Source: Candidatus Heimdallarchaeota archaeon (GTDB taxonomy: Archaea; Asgardarchaeota; Heimdallarchaeia; Hodarchaeales; Hodarchaeaceae). Taken from it: a DNA stretch of 64,000 bases. Position numbers and translations under genes: made by a program. The notes below the pieces were generated by a model. That model ran no database searches. It was not told where the DNA came from and saw nothing but the letters and a program-made list of their open reading frames with translations. The first letter of the stretch is position 1. Each line of letters opens with the position of its first letter. Positions 377 through 8,797 of this stretch are shown here, one piece after another. The stretch lies in assembly GCA_048881705.1 (NCBI GenBank), contig JBHLSH010000001.1, positions 128,001-192,000 on the forward strand, given 5' to 3'.

Positions 377-1009
377 GTGCATTCTTCGGTTCGACTTGTT
401 AAGAAAAGGCTTCAATTAAGTCAAAAAAAGTGGAACCAAATCCAAAACCACTCATTACGGACAGTTAATTCGATCCTAACAGTACTTTCACGACTGAATA
501 TGATTCAAGCGAGACCCGAGGTTTTTTCTGAACTGTTATTAAAGGAATTCGTGGATATACCAGATCGCCTTGCATATCGACTTGCTGACATTATCAATAA
601 AAACCTTGCAGACTTGAATCGCTATCTCTCTCAATTTTCAGATGTATTAAAAGAGATGCGGAAAATCGAAACACAATTTCGGCTTGATTTTTCAGAGCTT
701 GCCAAGAAAAAGGTTTTAGGTGAAAACCCTGTTGGAGGAGAGCATGATCTGGAGGTTATTGAGCAGGCTGAGCTGACTATCCAAAAGATCGTAGATATGT
801 ACGAAACGGAATTGTCTCTTCGTCAGGCAATCATTGCTGAAATTCAGGATATGACAGCCTTACAACCAGCTCATATCACGGCTTACTTGGTCTTATGGTC
901 TTCCGAAATCTATATCGAGCCAAACAAGATCGTCGAGCTGATTGAAGAGTTTACCCACGTTGAGAAAATCTATCGCCAATCCTATGATTCTTTACCAAAA
1001 TCACGCTGA
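377..1009 (+). CDS. Helical protein resembling the C1orf109/AIRIM (CA109-like) family
   Basis: 210 aa; W..IQ..SL..V.SI...L.RL near the N-terminus and MY..EL.LRQ.II..I...LW..E.YI near the C-terminus match the remembered family pattern and length. Confidence 0.5.
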   Translation: MHSSVRLVKKRLQLSQKKWNQIQNHSLRTVNSILTVLSRLNMIQARPEVFSELLLKEFVDIPDRLAYRLADIINKNLADLNRYLSQFSDVLKEMRKIETQFRLDFSELAKKKVLGENPVGGEHDLEVIEQAELTIQKIVDMYETELSLRQAIIAEIQDMTALQPAHITAYLVLWSSEIYIEPNKIVELIEEFTHVEKIYRQSYDSLPKSR

Positions 1010-1014
1010 AGAAT

Positions 1015-2418
1015 TCAACTTGCGTGGTAATTTCCTCTGTGTAATAAGGTGTTAATTGACCCTTTTTGGAATTCTTGGATCAAAACTTGTTGAACTAGAT
1101 CATTAACGGCATATGCAGGTTCTCCTTGTCCCAGGAGGGTTTTAACTAGATTCATCGTAAATTCGAGATCTTTACGCGCATGATGTTCATTACCTTCTGC
1201 ATATATGGCTACTCCTCTAAGTTGTGCATTATCAGGGCCGGTTTGGGAAGTAAACACACATTGTTTGTCGCCAGCGGTCAAATGATCTGGAGTATGTCCA
1301 ATGAGATCGGAACTCATTGATTGAATTGCCGAAAATAACCCCGTGTACAAACAAACTTCTTGCCCAGCTGGACGATGGCTAGCAAAAAGAGGTAACCCTC
1401 CATCTTCAAAGATATAGACTTCGGACTCAGTAAAAATCTGTCCTAGTACTTTGTATCGCCCATCTTCATCTGGGGAGTTTTCTATATCTAAAACGCTAGT
1501 ATCGACACCATTAACGCCTTGTGAAGTATCCAGCGAGGTTATCAAGCTATCTATCTCTTGGAGCGGGGCTGGCAATACTGCTTCGATCGGATGGTTATCT
1601 GTCAGCATGAGAGCCATTGTATATTCGGGAAAACAAGACCCTACTACATTCGAAAAATGATTTTGGAGATCTTTTCCAAATGTGGTCGAGAGTCGCCCAA
1701 CAATTCTGTTCATTTCTTTCAAACTTAAAGGATCCTGCGAATGGACAGTAACGAAGAGAGTTTCGAGTTTTTCAAGGTTTTCTGGTTGACTTATAGCCAA
1801 CATCTGTCCTGCCTTATCTATTGCATCCATCGTACAAGTTTCAAGGGCGGGAGATGATGAAAATCCGTAGAATAATTGTTCTGTGTTTCCAAAAATCTGA
1901 ATGAGATCAGAAAACGTTACACCCAATCCCTTTGGAGATTGAAAAACTGAGATAATGGAATCTAGAAGTACTAGAAATTCCCAACGAGATTGTTCTTCTT
2001 TGGAATCTAGGTGGAAATAGCTTCCTGGAATTAATTTGTGATCTTCCTTTTCGAAACCCGTTCCTATGTCAATCAAAAGAGGGATTGCCCCATTACTTCG
2101 GATTGAGTCAAGAACTCGCATCAGGATTGGAAGTGTAGTTGTATCAGAGGAATTAAAAATAAATAGCAAAAAATAGGCGTTTAATAGATTATGTACTTGC
2201 GACAAAACGGCTTCAGAATTGAAAACAATTATTTGATCACACAGATCATCCGAGACAGGATGAGCGGTAAGGTGCAATAGTGGCAGACGCGCCTCTTCTC
2301 TTACATCCAAGTACTCTCGGATGATATCCAAGGCGGAAGGAATATCTCCGATGCAGACTATTTTTCCACGAGGTCGAAAATACCCTAATAGGGCACTATC
2401 TTCAATAGTCATGTTCAA
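1015..2418 (-). CDS. Degenerate FtsZ/tubulin-like domain fused to a C-terminal longin-like domain
   Basis: SPKGLGVTFSDLIQIF resembles the FtsZ T7 region PGLINLDFADV; FtsZ C-domain pattern LFVTVHSQDPLSLKEMNRIV...HFSNVV...MALMLTD; no GGGTG(S/T)G. C-terminal VYIFEDGGLPLF...LYTGLFSAIQSMSSDLIG is a typical Asgard longin-like motif. Confidence 0.6.
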   Translation of the reverse strand: MNMTIEDSALLGYFRPRGKIVCIGDIPSALDIIREYLDVREEARLPLLHLTAHPVSDDLCDQIIVFNSEAVLSQVHNLLNAYFLLFIFNSSDTTTLPILMRVLDSIRSNGAIPLLIDIGTGFEKEDHKLIPGSYFHLDSKEEQSRWEFLVLLDSIISVFQSPKGLGVTFSDLIQIFGNTEQLFYGFSSSPALETCTMDAIDKAGQMLAISQPENLEKLETLFVTVHSQDPLSLKEMNRIVGRLSTTFGKDLQNHFSNVVGSCFPEYTMALMLTDNHPIEAVLPAPLQEIDSLITSLDTSQGVNGVDTSVLDIENSPDEDGRYKVLGQIFTESEVYIFEDGGLPLFASHRPAGQEVCLYTGLFSAIQSMSSDLIGHTPDHLTAGDKQCVFTSQTGPDNAQLRGVAIYAEGNEHHARKDLEFTMNLVKTLLGQGEPAYAVNDLVQQVLIQEFQKGSINTLLHRGNYHAS

Positions 2419-2677
2419 AGCTATTTCTCTTCTTCAATGTTAACCTAGTTTTCTGTTTAGCTGTTGTCTTGATAGAATTGGGTGAAAACAAGGATCGGAT
2501 TAAAAGTGGGGGAGTCTACCTCATTAACCGCCATATCATGTTGGAGTTATCAGATCCTAGTTACTTCACAGTTCATCCAGATTAACTAATTTTCCGAAAA
2601 AGATGAGGCGAAAATAAAAAAACCATCGAAACTCGAACTCCATTGAAACAAATTACACTGAAGAGAACGAACTTTCA

Positions 2678-4597
2678 ATGAGCTTTGAAATCAACAAATG
2701 TGATGGTCAGGGAAGAGCAGGCATTTGGAAAGAAGGGAACCTTGGAACGCCAACCTTCGTTAATCTCTGTTCATCGGCATTTCCGACATCACAATCCGAT
2801 TTTCTTGGATTCACACAAATCCCAAAGCATAATACAAGCGAACTCTATCATTCGGGTAATACCAAAGCACGAGACGGAGGAGATGATACTAAATTTCCTA
2901 ATTGCTATGTATATCCCTCGCTGCAGGTTCAAGGAAAGTCAATACGTGATCTCAGACAGATTACGGATTTTTTTCCTGAAAATACGATCCATAAATCATC
3001 TTCTCATCGATCTTTTCATTTAATCCCCTGGGATTTACCTACTATCTATCTCGATGGATTTGGTGAATATGTTACGACTCTCAATAATCTTGAAGAACAG
3101 AATCCTTCAAGCAACTTACAATTCTTTCTAAATGTGCCATTTAGAAAGGAAATACTCAATAATAACCTTCCAAAACTGATGGCCAAATCGATTGTGGGGA
3201 TCAGCTTAGGGGATCTTTCAGCAGTTGTCTCAAATCCCAAATCACTCATCGAATATATCAATCGAATTAGGTCATGGATGTCTCCTCGACGATTATTGTA
3301 TGCTCCTGGTATTCCAATTACATACATCCCGATATTGGTGTACCTTGGAGTTGATATTTTCGATTTTTTGCAGCTGGAATTAATTTCAGGGGCCACACCT
3401 TATCGACCTGGCGTATTATTTGAGCAAAACCCTTCCCTCATCAAATTCATTGATATTTTAGAACAGACACAGAATGCACTCATGGAAGGAACCTTAAGGG
3501 ATATGGTAAGAGTTTTTGCAAATGCATATCCACCTCTTAAAGCTATCCTGCGTCGAATTGACCAAGATATCCCGGTAGAGGGTACGCCACTTTATAGAAC
3601 CCAAAGATTATTGTGTACAGATGAAACAGACTTCACTAGACCCGAAGTGTCCTCTTTTCGTGAACGGGTACGTTCACGTTATTTTCCCTCACCCAAGACT
3701 GAAGGGATAATATTTCTCCCGTGTTCGGCCAAAAAACCATATTCTACATCAAAATCGCATGCCAGATTTAAAGGTACAATAAAACGGGCCATAAAACGCC
3801 GGCGCCACTTGATCCAGGAAATAATTTTAACCAGTCCTTTGGGAGTGGTGCCCCGAGAACTAGAATACACATATCCTGCGGGACATTATGACATACCGGT
3901 GACCGATTATTGGACAATTGAAGAGAAAAGTCATATAACCGAAGACATTCGAAACCTCTTGGCGAAACTTGATCCATCTTTACCCCTTGTTGGCTTTGTA
4001 AGGGGAACCGATCGTGAAATCTTAGCCGAAGCTTGCGATCAAGAAGGTCGTACTATTCATCTCGCCGACCCCGATATCGGGCATTTAACGTCCCCTGAAA
4101 GTCTCCGACACTTCAGTACTCTCTTAAGGGCGGCTTTTGGAGGGATTACCATAAATGAAACATCCTCCAGCCGTCTATTATTCCTCAGAACAATAGCTGA
4201 TTTTCAATTTGGAAAAGGAACGGGAAACTTGTTACTTCCCGATCAGGCAAGAATATCAGGCCATCTAGATCATGGATTGCGGGTAACGATGGATGGAAAA
4301 CATCTTGTTACGTTTCGCCCCGAAACAGGATTACTGACATTATCTCTCGCTGCTGGGCAACGAATAATGAACTATACTGAGAATATTGTTGTATTTGACG
4401 GTGAAAAAATCCAGGGTTCCACAATTTTTGCTCTCGGTATAATTCACGCCAATACTGCCATCCGCCCCAATGATGAAGTCTTGGTTGTGAACAAGGAAGG
4501 ACAGCTAATTGCAGTAGGAACATCATATCTTTCAGGCTGCCTATTGGTTGAAATGAATCGGGGAAAAGGAATAAAAATACGGCAAAAAGTGAATTAA
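2678..4597 (+). CDS. arcS: Archaeosine synthase subunit alpha (ArcS): TGT-like barrel, DUF5591 and PUA domains
   Basis: LPCSAKKPYSTSKSH motif, TSPLGVVPRELE, YDIPVT, C-terminal PUA domain; directly upstream of RaSEA. Confidence 0.9.
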   Translation: MSFEINKCDGQGRAGIWKEGNLGTPTFVNLCSSAFPTSQSDFLGFTQIPKHNTSELYHSGNTKARDGGDDTKFPNCYVYPSLQVQGKSIRDLRQITDFFPENTIHKSSSHRSFHLIPWDLPTIYLDGFGEYVTTLNNLEEQNPSSNLQFFLNVPFRKEILNNNLPKLMAKSIVGISLGDLSAVVSNPKSLIEYINRIRSWMSPRRLLYAPGIPITYIPILVYLGVDIFDFLQLELISGATPYRPGVLFEQNPSLIKFIDILEQTQNALMEGTLRDMVRVFANAYPPLKAILRRIDQDIPVEGTPLYRTQRLLCTDETDFTRPEVSSFRERVRSRYFPSPKTEGIIFLPCSAKKPYSTSKSHARFKGTIKRAIKRRRHLIQEIILTSPLGVVPRELEYTYPAGHYDIPVTDYWTIEEKSHITEDIRNLLAKLDPSLPLVGFVRGTDREILAEACDQEGRTIHLADPDIGHLTSPESLRHFSTLLRAAFGGITINETSSSRLLFLRTIADFQFGKGTGNLLLPDQARISGHLDHGLRVTMDGKHLVTFRPETGLLTLSLAAGQRIMNYTENIVVFDGEKIQGSTIFALGIIHANTAIRPNDEVLVVNKEGQLIAVGTSYLSGCLLVEMNRGKGIKIRQKVN

Positions 4598-4598
4598 A

Positions 4599-5705
4599 AT
4601 GTCTCCGTCTCTAAATTTTCGTTTGGCTTCGACGATAACAAAACTTCGACATGAATATCTTGCTCTCCAAAAAGAAGATGCTCATCAAAAGCTATGGGAT
4701 AAATTCGAAAAAGGTCCCGGATTTAATACTTTGACGGTCGTAATCCCTACAAGGGGGTGTAGCTGGGCATTGTCTGGAAATGGCGGGTGTTCTATGTGTG
4801 GATATGTCAATGATTCCTCCCGGGATCAACCTATCCCCTCTGAGCGAATCTTAAGAAATATAAGAAATCAACTATTAGAAAATCACGAGGAAAAACCTAT
4901 TCATCTGAAGATCTATAACTCTGGAAGTTTTTTTGATCAATGGGATGTTCCGAAAAATCTTCGTGACCAGCTAATTAGGCTTATTCAAGAAACTCCGAAT
5001 GTATTCAAGCTAAGTGTAGAAAGTAAATCGGAATATATCCTCTCCTGTTTTGATCTTATCAAGGAAGCTGCCAAACAATTGGCTCCTAAAGAGCTAGAGA
5101 TCGGTATTGGATTAGAAAGTTCAAACGATGCAATCATAAGGGATTGCCACAATAAAGGCACCTCCTTGGATGTGTATAACCAAAGTGTGCAGCTACTTCG
5201 GCCCTTAGGGGTTCGAATCAAGACCTATATACTTATAAAACCCCCCTTTCTTACCGAAGCCGATTCTATAAGAGATGCTATCCAAACAGCTATCGAAGCA
5301 GCCAAGATCGGAACTGATATCATTTCTTTCAGTCCGTGCACCGTTCAAAGCGGAACCTTGGTAGACTTTCTTTATAGACAGGACCGATACCAACCACCTT
5401 GGCTATGGTCAGTTCTTTACATTGTCCGAGAGATTCGCTCTCTTTACCCATCACTACCTATCATCTGTGATCCAGTCGCTGCAGGAAAACCGAGAGGAGC
5501 CCACAACTGTGGAAAATGCGATACACAGGTACTTGAAGAAATTAATAGAATGACAGCTTCCGAAAGCATCCCTCGGAATCTTTCTGAACTTTCTGACATC
5601 TGTACCTGTCATTACAAGTGGATACGTTTGGTACAAACCCCAATCGAAATTTTCCGCTCACGAAACCTTTCGCAGCTACGAAAGTCATACCCTTTAGAAA
5701 ACTAA
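4599..5705 (+). CDS. Archaeosine biosynthesis radical SAM protein RaSEA (TIGR01210-like)
   Basis: RGCSWALSGNGGCSMCGY cluster motif, YNSGSFFD, IGLES, YILIKPPFLTE, YQPPWLWS, RGAHNCGKCD; 1 bp after arcS. Confidence 0.9.
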   Translation: MSPSLNFRLASTITKLRHEYLALQKEDAHQKLWDKFEKGPGFNTLTVVIPTRGCSWALSGNGGCSMCGYVNDSSRDQPIPSERILRNIRNQLLENHEEKPIHLKIYNSGSFFDQWDVPKNLRDQLIRLIQETPNVFKLSVESKSEYILSCFDLIKEAAKQLAPKELEIGIGLESSNDAIIRDCHNKGTSLDVYNQSVQLLRPLGVRIKTYILIKPPFLTEADSIRDAIQTAIEAAKIGTDIISFSPCTVQSGTLVDFLYRQDRYQPPWLWSVLYIVREIRSLYPSLPIICDPVAAGKPRGAHNCGKCDTQVLEEINRMTASESIPRNLSELSDICTCHYKWIRLVQTPIEIFRSRNLSQLRKSYPLEN

Positions 5706-5715
5706 CCTCTCACTC

Positions 5716-6864
5716 TTACGTCTTTGAAGTAAGGAATTTTTGGAGTTCCTTGGCATCATGGAAAACATAACTGTCATCAATCTCTTCTCGTATACGTTGA
5801 AGAGTCTGTTTGACGGGCTTTTTCAGCTTTGGAGGAATTTTTACCTTGAGTCCAACATAAAAATCTCCTCTTTGAGAGCTATTTGGTATGGGAGCTCCTT
5901 TCTTCCTTATCGTGATGATCTCCCCACTCTCAGTCCCAGGGGCTACTGTGATTCTTTCTGTTCCGTTAATAGAGGGAACAGTGAGCTTTACGCCTAGGAT
6001 GGCATCAATAAAACTTATAGGGTACTCAAGTAGGATATCTGCCCCGCTACGCTTGAAAAAAGGATGAGGATCTACGGATATAACCAAGAGCAGATCACCA
6101 CGAGGACCCCCTAATTCACCAGGCCGGCCTTCGCCACGCATAATCACTCGCATTCCAGAGTCCACGCCAGCGGGAATATTGGCCTCAACCGTTCTAAATT
6201 GTTTAACCTTGCCAACACCATCGCATGTTTCACATTCGGCACCACGAGGAATTGTTTGACCTTCTCCTCGGCAACGGGGGCATGTTGAAATATTTACAAT
6301 TTGGCCAAAGGCAGACCGCTGAACTTGACGGATTTCCCCGGTTCCTTGGCAGGTAGAACAAGTGGACGATGATTTACCGGGTTTTACTTTCATTCCGTGG
6401 CAAGTCGGACATTGTGCCCAATTGGGTACCTTTATTTTCTTGGTTAGTCCATTCATTGCTTCTTCAAACGAGATTTCTAGATTAAGATGGACATCAGCCC
6501 CACGTTGAGGTCGTGGTCGGGAAGTTCGTGCTCGAGTCCCTCCTCCAAAGCCGCCAAAGAGATCCTCAAAGATACCAAAACCTCGGAATAAATCCTCAAA
6601 GCCCATACCTGAAAAATCGGTGAAAGGTGTACCAGAAATTCCCGCGTGACCGTATCGGTCGTATCGAGCTCGATTTTCACTGTCAGAGAGTACTTCGAAG
6701 GCCTCTGCGGCTTCCTTGAATTTGTTTTCAGCGTCAGGGTCATCAGGTTTCATGTCAGGGTGATATTTTCTCGCTAGCTTACGAAATGCCTTCTTAATTG
6801 TCTTGAGATCCGCATCCCTGGGAACTCCCAAGACTTCATAGTAATCCCGCTTGTTTTCGCTCAT
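5716..6864 (-). CDS. dnaJ: Chaperone DnaJ
   Basis: J domain with HPD, G/F-rich linker, four CxxCxGxG-type repeats, C-terminal domains. Confidence 0.97.
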
Positions 6865-6931
6865 CTATGTCACTTTGATGATATTATAAACCTTTGTGGA
6901 AACAGGGAAGATATATGCCCGCCTACTAGGG

Positions 6932-8797
6932 TTATTTTTTATCCTCATCCACAATTTCGTAATCGACATCTACTACTTCAGATTCATCAGCGCCTGCAGG
7001 TGCTCCCTGAAATCCTGAGCCAGGTGCTCCTTGGAAATCTGCTCCAGCAGCTCCTTGTGCTTGGGCTTGTTGAGCATACATCTGCTGTGCCAATTGATGA
7101 GTTACCTTTTCAAGTTCTTCTACATTCTGTTTAATAGCAGCAACATTTTGTCCCTGTAGAGCCGTTTTTGTTGCCTCAATTTGCTTCTCGGCCTGGGTAC
7201 GCAAACCACTGTCAACAGCATCTCCTAGATCCTTGAGCAGCTTCTCAGTCTGATAAACCAGCGAATCGGCCTTATTTCGAGTTTCAGCTGCTTGGAGTCG
7301 CTCTGTATCTTCGGTCTCGTATTTCGCTGCCTCATCTACCATCCGTTGGAGGTCAGCTGCGCTAAGCCCACTATCGCTTTTAATTGTGACTTTCTGTTCA
7401 TTTCCTGTTCCCAGATCTTTCGCTGATACATGGGCAATTCCATTGGCATCCATATCAAAGGTCACTTCAATTTGAGGGATACCCCTAAGAGCAGGTGGGA
7501 TCCCTACAAGTTGAAATCTCCCCAAAGTAATATTATCCCCAGCCATCTTTCGTTCTCCCTGCAGCACGTGAATTTCTACGCTGGGTTGGTTATCAGCTGC
7601 AGTAGAAAAGATTTGACTCTTTTTTGTGGGAATTGTGGTGTTTCTGTCAATTAGTCTGGTGAAAACTCCACCCAAGGTTTCTATTCCAAGCGATAAAGGA
7701 GTAACATCAAGAAGCAAAACACCTTCGACGTCACCAAGCAAAATTGCCGCTTGAACTGCGGCTCCCAGGGCAACGCATTCATCTGGATTGATTTCTTTAG
7801 TAGGCTCTTTTCGGAAGTACGAACGTATAGCAGATTGGACGGCAGGAACACGGGTAGATCCGCCCACAAGCAGTATCTTGTCAATTTCAGAGGGTTGCAG
7901 CTTCGCATCTGAAAGCGCCTGCCGTGTTGGGCCCATTGCTGCTTCTATTAGATCTGCAATCATGATCTCAAATTTCGCTCGCGTGAGAGTGAGATTTAGA
8001 TGCTTTGGGCCCGAACTATCCGCATAAATATAAGGTAAATTGATTTCCGCACTTGTTTTCTGAGACAATTCGATTTTGGCCTGCTCTGATGCATCTTTTA
8101 AGCGCTGCATAGCCATGGGATCCTTGGATAAATCGAGTCCCGAATCTTTCCGGAATTCTTCCACAATCCAATCCATAATCCGTTGGTCCATATCATCCCC
8201 TCCTAATCGATTGTTACCTGAGGTAGCTTTAACCTCGAAAACTCCTTCAGAAAGTTCGAGAATCGAGACATCAAAGGTTCCTCCTCCTAGATCGAAAACG
8301 AGGATAGTTTGTTCCTCTTCTTTATCTAGACCGTACGCCAATGAAGCGCTGGTCGGTTCATTAATAATCCGCATCACATCCAGTCCGGCAATTCGACCTG
8401 CATCCTTAGTTGCCTGCCGTTGGGAATCGGAGAAGTATGCCGGGACTGTAATTACCGCTTTTTGGATTGTTTCCCCTAGATATGCTTCGGCATCGCGCTT
8501 AAGTTTTTGAAGAATCATAGCACTAATTTCAGGGGGCTTATAGGTTTTTCCGTCAATATCTATCGTAAAATTGGTTCCCATTTCACGTTTAATTGATCGT
8601 ATTGTTCGTTCGGGTTTTGAAATAGCCTGACGTTTAGCCAATACCCCAACAACGCGTTCACCATCTTTAGAAATGGTCACTACGCTTGGAGTTGTTCTTT
8701 GTCCTTCTGCGTTAGGAATAATAACAGGTTTTCCGCCTTCCATTGTAGCAATGGCGGAGAATGTTGTCCCTAGATCTATACCGATAGGTCGTGTCAC
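6932..8797 (-). CDS. dnaK: Chaperone DnaK (Hsp70)
   Basis: [29 protein letters not shown] and LVGGSTRVP motifs; short N-terminal form typical of archaea and Gram-positive bacteria. Confidence 0.98.

Follow-up and report, generated by a model that had tools for sequence, protein, structure and literature searches.

A 467-residue protein encoded in the window, that is, the whole 64,000-nt stretch of DNA analysed (JBHLSH010000001.1, positions 128,001-192,000 of the forward strand; assembly GCA_048881705.1, Candidatus Heimdallarchaeota archaeon, Hodarchaeales), is a paralog of FtsZ in which the whole FtsZ fold is kept, with one longin/roadblock domain attached by a flexible linker. The FtsZ half of this protein, hereafter pseudo-FtsZ-longin, is very unlikely to bind or hydrolyse GTP in the canonical way, as judged from its sequence. 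What is new is a tubulin-superfamily pseudo-GTPase bearing a longin domain, components of both kinds being already known. A full-text search of the literature on FtsZ together with longin/roadblock proteins in Asgard archaea found no description of an FtsZ-longin fusion, in line with the first-pass annotation of this DNA, which knew of no such fusion.

The features of the gene are collected in Table 1. The database copy of the protein has 465 residues and begins at the ATG two codons after the TTG. Since the two nearest orthologs have the TTG and lack an ATG at that position, the TTG is at least as likely a start as the ATG. The promoters of this gene and of the divergent ArcS-like gene presumably lie in the intergenic region common to both; on reading that region no promoter elements were identified.

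Table 1. Positions of the pseudo-FtsZ-longin gene, its parts and the adjoining intergenic region in the window.
Feature	Window position	Strand	Residues	Remarks
Pseudo-FtsZ-longin gene	1015-2418	-	467 aa	one uninterrupted ORF
Stop codon	1015-1017	-		
Start codon TTG	2418-2416	-		
Alternative start codon ATG	2412-2410	-		
Equivalent of FtsZ N-terminal GTPase subdomain	1939-2379	-	14-160	from predicted fold
FNSSDTT, at the place of GGGTGTG (T4 loop)	2137-2157	-	88-94	
Equivalent of FtsZ C-terminal subdomain	1594-1938	-	161-275	from sequence homology
Degenerate T7 loop and start of H8	1897-1932	-	163-174	KGLGVTFSDLIQ
Disordered linker with acidic end	1468-1593	-	276-317	
Longin/roadblock-type domain	1063-1467	-	318-452	
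Low-confidence tail, ending Ala-Ser	1018-1062	-	453-467	
Carboxy-terminal [FY]-[HQ]-A-S	1018-1029	-	464-467	
Intergenic region common to pseudo-FtsZ-longin and divergent ArcS-like gene	2419-2677	.		

The predicted model of residues 14-275 has the two-subdomain fold of FtsZ and tubulin, with a Rossmann-like subdomain, H7 and a C-terminal subdomain. The strands and helices of the N-terminal subdomain follow the Rossmann-like order without T1 or G-box, and its conserved motifs are RPRGKIxxIG, FNSS, IDxG and YF. Comparison of this subdomain alone with FtsZ by hhalign gave E 0.44; since a sequence signal to FtsZ is thus absent, its assignment rests on the predicted model. Sequence homology to FtsZ is detectable in the C-terminal subdomain alone. 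FtsZ was the sole match of the family profile in the PDB (E 0.0017), and hhalign against FtsZ together with the canonical FtsZ-longin fusions described below gave E 2.7e-20 across C-terminal subdomain, linker and longin. The 467-residue protein itself had no match to PF00091 or PF12327 at E up to 1, direct scans against Pfam and NCBIfam returned nothing usable, and a feature-based search of the ESM Atlas returned no usable match. The core is ~45 residues shorter than that of FtsZ (262 versus about 305).

The motifs of the GTPase are lost throughout the family. Neither the tubulin signature [SAG]GGTG[SAT]G nor the looser GG.G.G was present in any of 69 members; FNSS[DE] stands there instead, FNSSDTT of the window protein having been placed at T4 from the order of the strands and from a profile alignment of low confidence. 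The T1 loop GGGGxN was likewise absent from all 69, with K-I-V-C-I-G-D at the equivalent stretch. None of the 69 keeps the NxDxxD loop of T7, the four matches to that expression falling elsewhere in the protein. In the HMMER alignment to FtsZ the T7 columns N-L-D-F-A-D correspond to G-V/I-S/T-F-S-D/N, the Asn position being Gly in 39 of 44 sequences and the first Asp being Ser or Thr in 42 of 44; the second Asp position is Asp or Asn in 41 of 44 (Asp 26, Asn 15). The hydrophobic core of T7/H8 is kept (F169 in 43/44, L172 in 40/44 and F176 in 44/44). Loss of the GTPase motifs makes it very unlikely that the protein binds GTP in the canonical way or trans-activates its hydrolysis. The best-conserved spots of the N-terminal subdomain are the former nucleotide-pocket loops (G24, N89-S91, D117, G119 and Y134-F135), which hints that this face may have a function of its own, for example toward another ligand or partner.

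The C-terminal domain was predicted to have the five-stranded antiparallel sheet between helices of the longin/roadblock fold, in the order alpha-beta-beta-alpha-beta-beta-beta-alpha-alpha, and its structural matches included Mon1-Ccz1, MglB and Ragulator. At the level of sequence, Fuz_longin_1 was touched by one of 27 domain sequences (E 0.0017, under the 26.1-bit cut-off) and the domain profile retrieved only dynein roadblock from the PDB (E 0.12). The longin is the most conserved part of the protein, with 79 of its 135 columns conserved at 90% or above, and the linker the least, with none of its 42 columns at that level. The first-pass annotation had read residues ~17-275 as following FtsZ, the GGGTG(S/T)G signature as gone, the NxD of T7 as replaced, and an acidic linker as leading into a longin-like domain; the predicted folds, the homology of the C-terminal subdomain and the motif counts bear out this description. 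The carboxy-terminal Ala-Ser is invariant in the family and recurs in the divergent orthologs P0081 and P0083 and in all but one of the five canonical fusions aligned, the exception, P0093, having A-S-S at its end; the [FY]-[HQ]-A-S end may be a C-terminal peptide motif borne on the low-confidence tail.

Three tandem longins, as in the tri-longin GEFs, were not found; one longin is present and the protein ends 15 residues later. Because of this single longin domain the protein lies outside the tri-longin GEF family (Mon1, Ccz1, Fuzzy, Inturned, HPS1/4). The longin is not followed by a SNARE motif and membrane anchor as in VAMP7, Sec22 and Ykt6, and the absence of a SNARE motif sets the protein apart from the longin SNAREs. 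The earlier reading of a pseudo-FtsZ adaptor stands in its architecture, a dead FtsZ fused to a longin, is plausible as regards the adaptor role, and falls in its proposed link to SNARE machinery, which nothing supports.

A search of 5.8 billion clusters returned 68 relatives at 30-91% identity, nearly all of 440-520 aa and aligned end to end, without Pfam domains and all named hypothetical; beyond these, an exhaustive profile search over 1.84 billion representatives yielded no more than a few distant ones. Submitters had labelled the relatives mostly as Hodarchaeales, Hodarchaeota or Heimdallarchaeota, and the closest homologue as Thorarchaeota, which we take to be a loose MAG label. All 22 reference genomes of the genus-level lineage of the window carry one copy of full-length pseudo-FtsZ-longin, and both genomes of its sister family carry syntenic divergent orthologs (P0079-like, P0083), for a total of 24/24 in the order; the P0083 gene is again near an ArcS-like gene, with one 246-aa ORF between. 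When 400 genomes of the phylum were queried with the longin domain, strong matches were confined to Hodarchaeales (24/24), and outside the order the matches were only weak, falling on small longins that stand alone and on a few proteins of other architecture. The order ArcS / pseudo-FtsZ-longin / C1orf109-like was seen at every inspected locus of the genus-level lineage. From the order-wide presence and kept synteny, it follows that the fusion is real and old within the order. The first-pass annotation had suggested looking for the same architecture across Asgard genomes and had allowed for an assembly chimera found nowhere else; the architecture recurs as described, and the chimera is countered by the 24 genomes and the synteny.

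The dN/dS ratios, computed per domain against two close orthologs, were 0.06-0.13 for the N-terminal subdomain, 0.10-0.17 for the C-terminal subdomain, 0.03-0.055 for the longin, 0.20-0.39 for the linker and 0.08-0.12 overall. These values indicate that both folded halves are under strong purifying selection, and since they are low in each domain a decaying relic is excluded.

The convergent neighbour of pseudo-FtsZ-longin (window 377-1009, plus strand) encodes a helical protein of 210 aa that matched Pfam CA109-like (C1orf109/AIRIM family) with 34.8 bits, over a curated cut-off of 27 bits (E 1.9e-8), a candidate eukaryotic-signature protein with no evident functional link to pseudo-FtsZ-longin. 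On the other side, the ArcS-like protein (2678-4597, plus strand; DUF5591, TGT_C2 and PUA) is immediately followed by a radical-SAM protein (4599-5705, plus strand). This pair is conserved beside the pseudo-FtsZ-longin gene and presumably resembles ArcS/RaSEA of archaeosine synthesis. DnaJ and DnaK come next (5716-8797, minus strand), in a block that extends in relatives to GrpE and an HTH protein.

Other members of the superfamily were encountered. About 49 kb before the window a divergent tubulin-family protein of 466 aa is encoded (G000:C1:79516-80007; L002 619-2019, minus strand), with a PF00091 match (E 8.9e-16) and an FGGGTGCGG box; the gene immediately upstream of it, in the same orientation, encodes a helical protein of 477 aa. 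P0084 and its cluster members (270 aa, from unlabelled contigs) matched FtsZ_C (E 1e-16) and have a T7 of NVDYAD without a G-box; on sequence grounds, this group is another degenerate FtsZ lineage. An Atlas search with the pseudo-FtsZ-longin model returned a separate similar cluster, with a 272-aa representative and FtsZ_C in 97% of members, all from Bacteria and most commonly Fusobacteriota.

The exhaustive search also returned P0075, and follow-up extended the group to P0089-P0093; under the deposited name 'cell division protein FtsZ', these six proteins have a canonical FtsZ fused to a longin. All come from Hodarchaeales-labelled MAGs; none was found in two scans of species-representative genomes or in the 400 phylum genomes. 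Three members of the pseudo-FtsZ-longin family under similar submitter labels belong to sibling assemblies and not to one and the same assembly. The N-terminal part matched PF00091 (E 4e-40) and PF12327 (E 1.5e-19) and was 50% identical to the FtsZ of the window genome, and the C-terminal part is the same longin as in the pseudo-FtsZ-longin family. GGGTGTG and NLD[YF]SD are kept in all six, and GGGGNN in the four full-length proteins, the two other records being N-terminally truncated so that T1 is not covered. In a longin tree all FtsZ-attached longins formed one clade against three outgroups (support 98/95); branches were long, and the tree placed the window's family, the canonical fusions and two divergent groups in no clear order. 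The simplest reading, tentative in its direction, would be that the fusion arose once, long ago, and that the GTPase motifs were lost later.

At three of three canonical-fusion loci the gene just upstream, in the same orientation, encodes an Arf/Ras/Rag-like GTPase, the order being TFIIB / small GTPase / fusion gene / EamA. Further, the outgroup longin protein L044 228-1115 (295 aa; G126, of another Asgard family) is an Arf-family GTPase (PF00025, E 5e-53) fused to a longin of the nearest outgroup subtype, and GTPase-longin fusions have been described for Asgard archaea (PMC10933270). No GTPase gene was found within 8 kb of pseudo-FtsZ-longin in the loci of two relatives, and its link to GTPases therefore rests on these related proteins. 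The window genome encodes 36 or more Ras-superfamily GTPases, among which the one most similar to the fusion-linked GTPase (G000:C2:32725-33285, 64% identity) had neighbours uninformative about a partner. A common genomic context of plain FtsZ and the canonical fusions was considered and rejected on the closed genome G058, where plain FtsZ is located among HypA/HypB, a PRS2-type AAA protein and LonB and not with TFIIB/GTPase/EamA; in the window genome FtsZ is located at a contig end.

In all 24 genomes of the order canonical FtsZ is encoded just once, and it carries no longin. When the order was compared with the class (83 genomes), SepF (PF04472) was detected in none of the 24 genomes of the order versus 28 of 31 and 12 of 12 in two other families; only one family within the class has two FtsZ genes, and three further families have neither detectable SepF nor pseudo-FtsZ-longin. 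The idea that pseudo-FtsZ-longin replaced a lost FtsZ2/SepF pair was not supported as stated, since a simple replacement fails where three families are without both and most families of the class have one FtsZ. The FtsZ of the window genome, a protein of 431 aa encoded on G000:C37, has the C-terminal end KKPRKKFLGIF.

The complex of the pseudo-FtsZ core (residues 14-285) with the FtsZ core of the window genome (residues 40-365) was predicted in the presence of GTP. The docking score was 0.61 in all three runs versus 0.00 for the best of three controls; 58 of 80 solved complexes attained 0.61, as did 2 of 110 mismatched pairs, counts that hold only roughly because our own alignments were used and the GTP ligand was included. 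At least 84% of contacts agreed between runs, and the pLDDT of the partner was at least 79. The predicted geometry is the canonical head-to-tail arrangement, with the degenerate T7 face on the GTP face of FtsZ. Contacts on the pseudo-FtsZ side involve residues 163-174 (T7/H8), 230-257 and 277-282, and on the FtsZ side T1 (N71), T2 (D91, Q93, H94), T3 (111-119), T5 (180-187) and 213-226. The predicted interface residues are hardly more conserved than the rest of the region (0.67 versus 0.61). Since FtsZ-FtsZ protofilament contacts have already been solved, the score may reflect recall or likeness and not binding, and docking that could be recall of solved FtsZ filaments leaves an adaptor function plausible at most.

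With that reserve, we tentatively favour, at somewhat below even confidence, a model in which a dead-GTPase pseudo-FtsZ docks on FtsZ and its longin acts on a small GTPase. Its elements are not equally certain, the absence of canonical GTP use being the most secure, followed by docking on FtsZ and then by regulation of a GTPase by the longin. The face of the C-terminal subdomain with the degenerate T7 would dock head-to-tail on the one canonical FtsZ of the cell, at its GTP face. Since the catalytic Asn/Asp of T7 are gone, pseudo-FtsZ would sit on that protofilament end, or on a free subunit, and leave hydrolysis untriggered. The motif-less upper face of pseudo-FtsZ would offer no normal nucleotide interface for more growth. 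The conservation of the former nucleotide-pocket loops is left unexplained by this model. The tethered longin, probably a platform for a dimer, would bind or regulate one of the 36 or more Ras-superfamily GTPases, and as the outcome either a GTPase switch would be brought to FtsZ structures or FtsZ assembly would be placed under GTPase control. A more specific form, in which the dedicated, FtsZ-derived adaptor caps FtsZ protofilaments at their GTP-bearing end without hydrolysis, offers a longin platform to an Arf/Rab-like GTPase and may stand in for the SepF anchor, is rather unlikely.

The principal competitor, for its part doubtful, is a regulator independent of FtsZ, in which the dead FtsZ fold, no longer in contact with FtsZ, serves a longin-based GEF or GAP of a small GTPase as its scaffold, sensor or dimerisation module, and its former pocket may bind another ligand or partner. 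The distribution of constraint is consistent with this reading; the longin is the most constrained part in both conserved columns and dN/dS, the N-terminal subdomain is best conserved at the former-pocket loops and the predicted FtsZ interface stands barely above its surroundings. Longin/roadblock domains are also known to regulate GTPases, as in Mon1-Ccz1, MglB and Ragulator matched here. The same reading is at odds with a complex prediction that passes its controls in canonical geometry, with retention of the T7/H8 hydrophobic core, and with purifying selection over the entire two-subdomain fold, where a simple scaffold could be smaller.

Assembly of the protein with itself, independently of nucleotide, into dimers or filaments through both degenerate faces so that arrays of longins are displayed, is quite improbable. 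Conserved residues are kept on both faces, longin/roadblock domains usually dimerise in structures and FtsZ-fold proteins generally polymerise, but the nucleotide pocket needed for the canonical longitudinal interface is absent. A non-canonical nucleotide pocket that acts as a slow switch, so that the protein would not be truly GTP-dead, is likewise quite improbable given the loss of all glycine-rich phosphate-binding loops in 69 of 69 members and the shortened core, despite strong conservation of G24, N89, S90, S91, D117 and G119. That the gene is a functionless, decaying FtsZ duplicate or an assembly chimera, for which the loss of every catalytic motif might speak, is refuted by the conservation data, the ORF being intact and single-copy in all 24 genomes of the order with dN/dS of 0.17 or less in both FtsZ subdomains, the same architecture recurring in about 68 clusters from independent assemblies and the DNA of the window being found in the sequencing runs of two studies. 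No RNA data set was listed as containing this DNA.

The Asgard group is labelled close kin of eukaryotes. To our knowledge its members have dozens of small GTPases and many longin/roadblock proteins, almost none with an assigned partner or process. Pseudo-FtsZ-longin hard-wires a longin to a fold not known to serve anything but the FtsZ cytoskeleton. If the adaptor model is true, there would be a direct physical tie between the tubulin-superfamily cytoskeleton and small-GTPase signalling in archaea, and the coupling of a tubulin-family filament to GTPase switches, a eukaryotic hallmark, would already exist there. If the link holds, the protein would also be a rare natural pseudo-GTPase of the tubulin superfamily under strong selection.

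SulA (1ofu) and MciZ, both small and unrelated, bind FtsZ at one of its polymerisation faces, the T7 face. Their likeness to pseudo-FtsZ would be one of functional analogy only, in that a longitudinal interface of FtsZ is occupied without hydrolysis or growth; pseudo-FtsZ is instead a paralog of FtsZ, predicted on the opposite, GTP face and equipped with a signalling domain. Compared with FtsZ itself (M. tuberculosis 6ym1/2q1x, M. jannaschii 1fsz, Odinarchaeota FtsZ1 9v7v), it is without T1, G-box and catalytic T7 and has a longin in place of the usual C-terminal peptide.

The longin half is 12-22% identical in sequence to the first longins of Mon1/Ccz1 (Rab7 GEF; 5ldd, 9l0d) and Fuzzy/Inturned (CPLANE), which have three tandem longins where pseudo-FtsZ-longin has one. 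MglB and the Asgard roadblock proteins (6hjm, 3t1r, 9jue, 7f8m) stand alone beside a GTPase gene, whereas the window longin is fused to a large domain and has extra, longin-like C-terminal helices. The Arf/Rag-like GTPase-longin fusions (Tran et al. 2024, PMC10933270; L044 228-1115) join a longin to a GTP-binding domain; there the partner is a Ras-superfamily GTPase, and in pseudo-FtsZ-longin it is a degenerate fold of the FtsZ superfamily. The canonical FtsZ-longin fusions share with pseudo-FtsZ-longin the order of domains, the longin subtype and the long linker, and differ from it in their canonical GTPase motifs and their locus.
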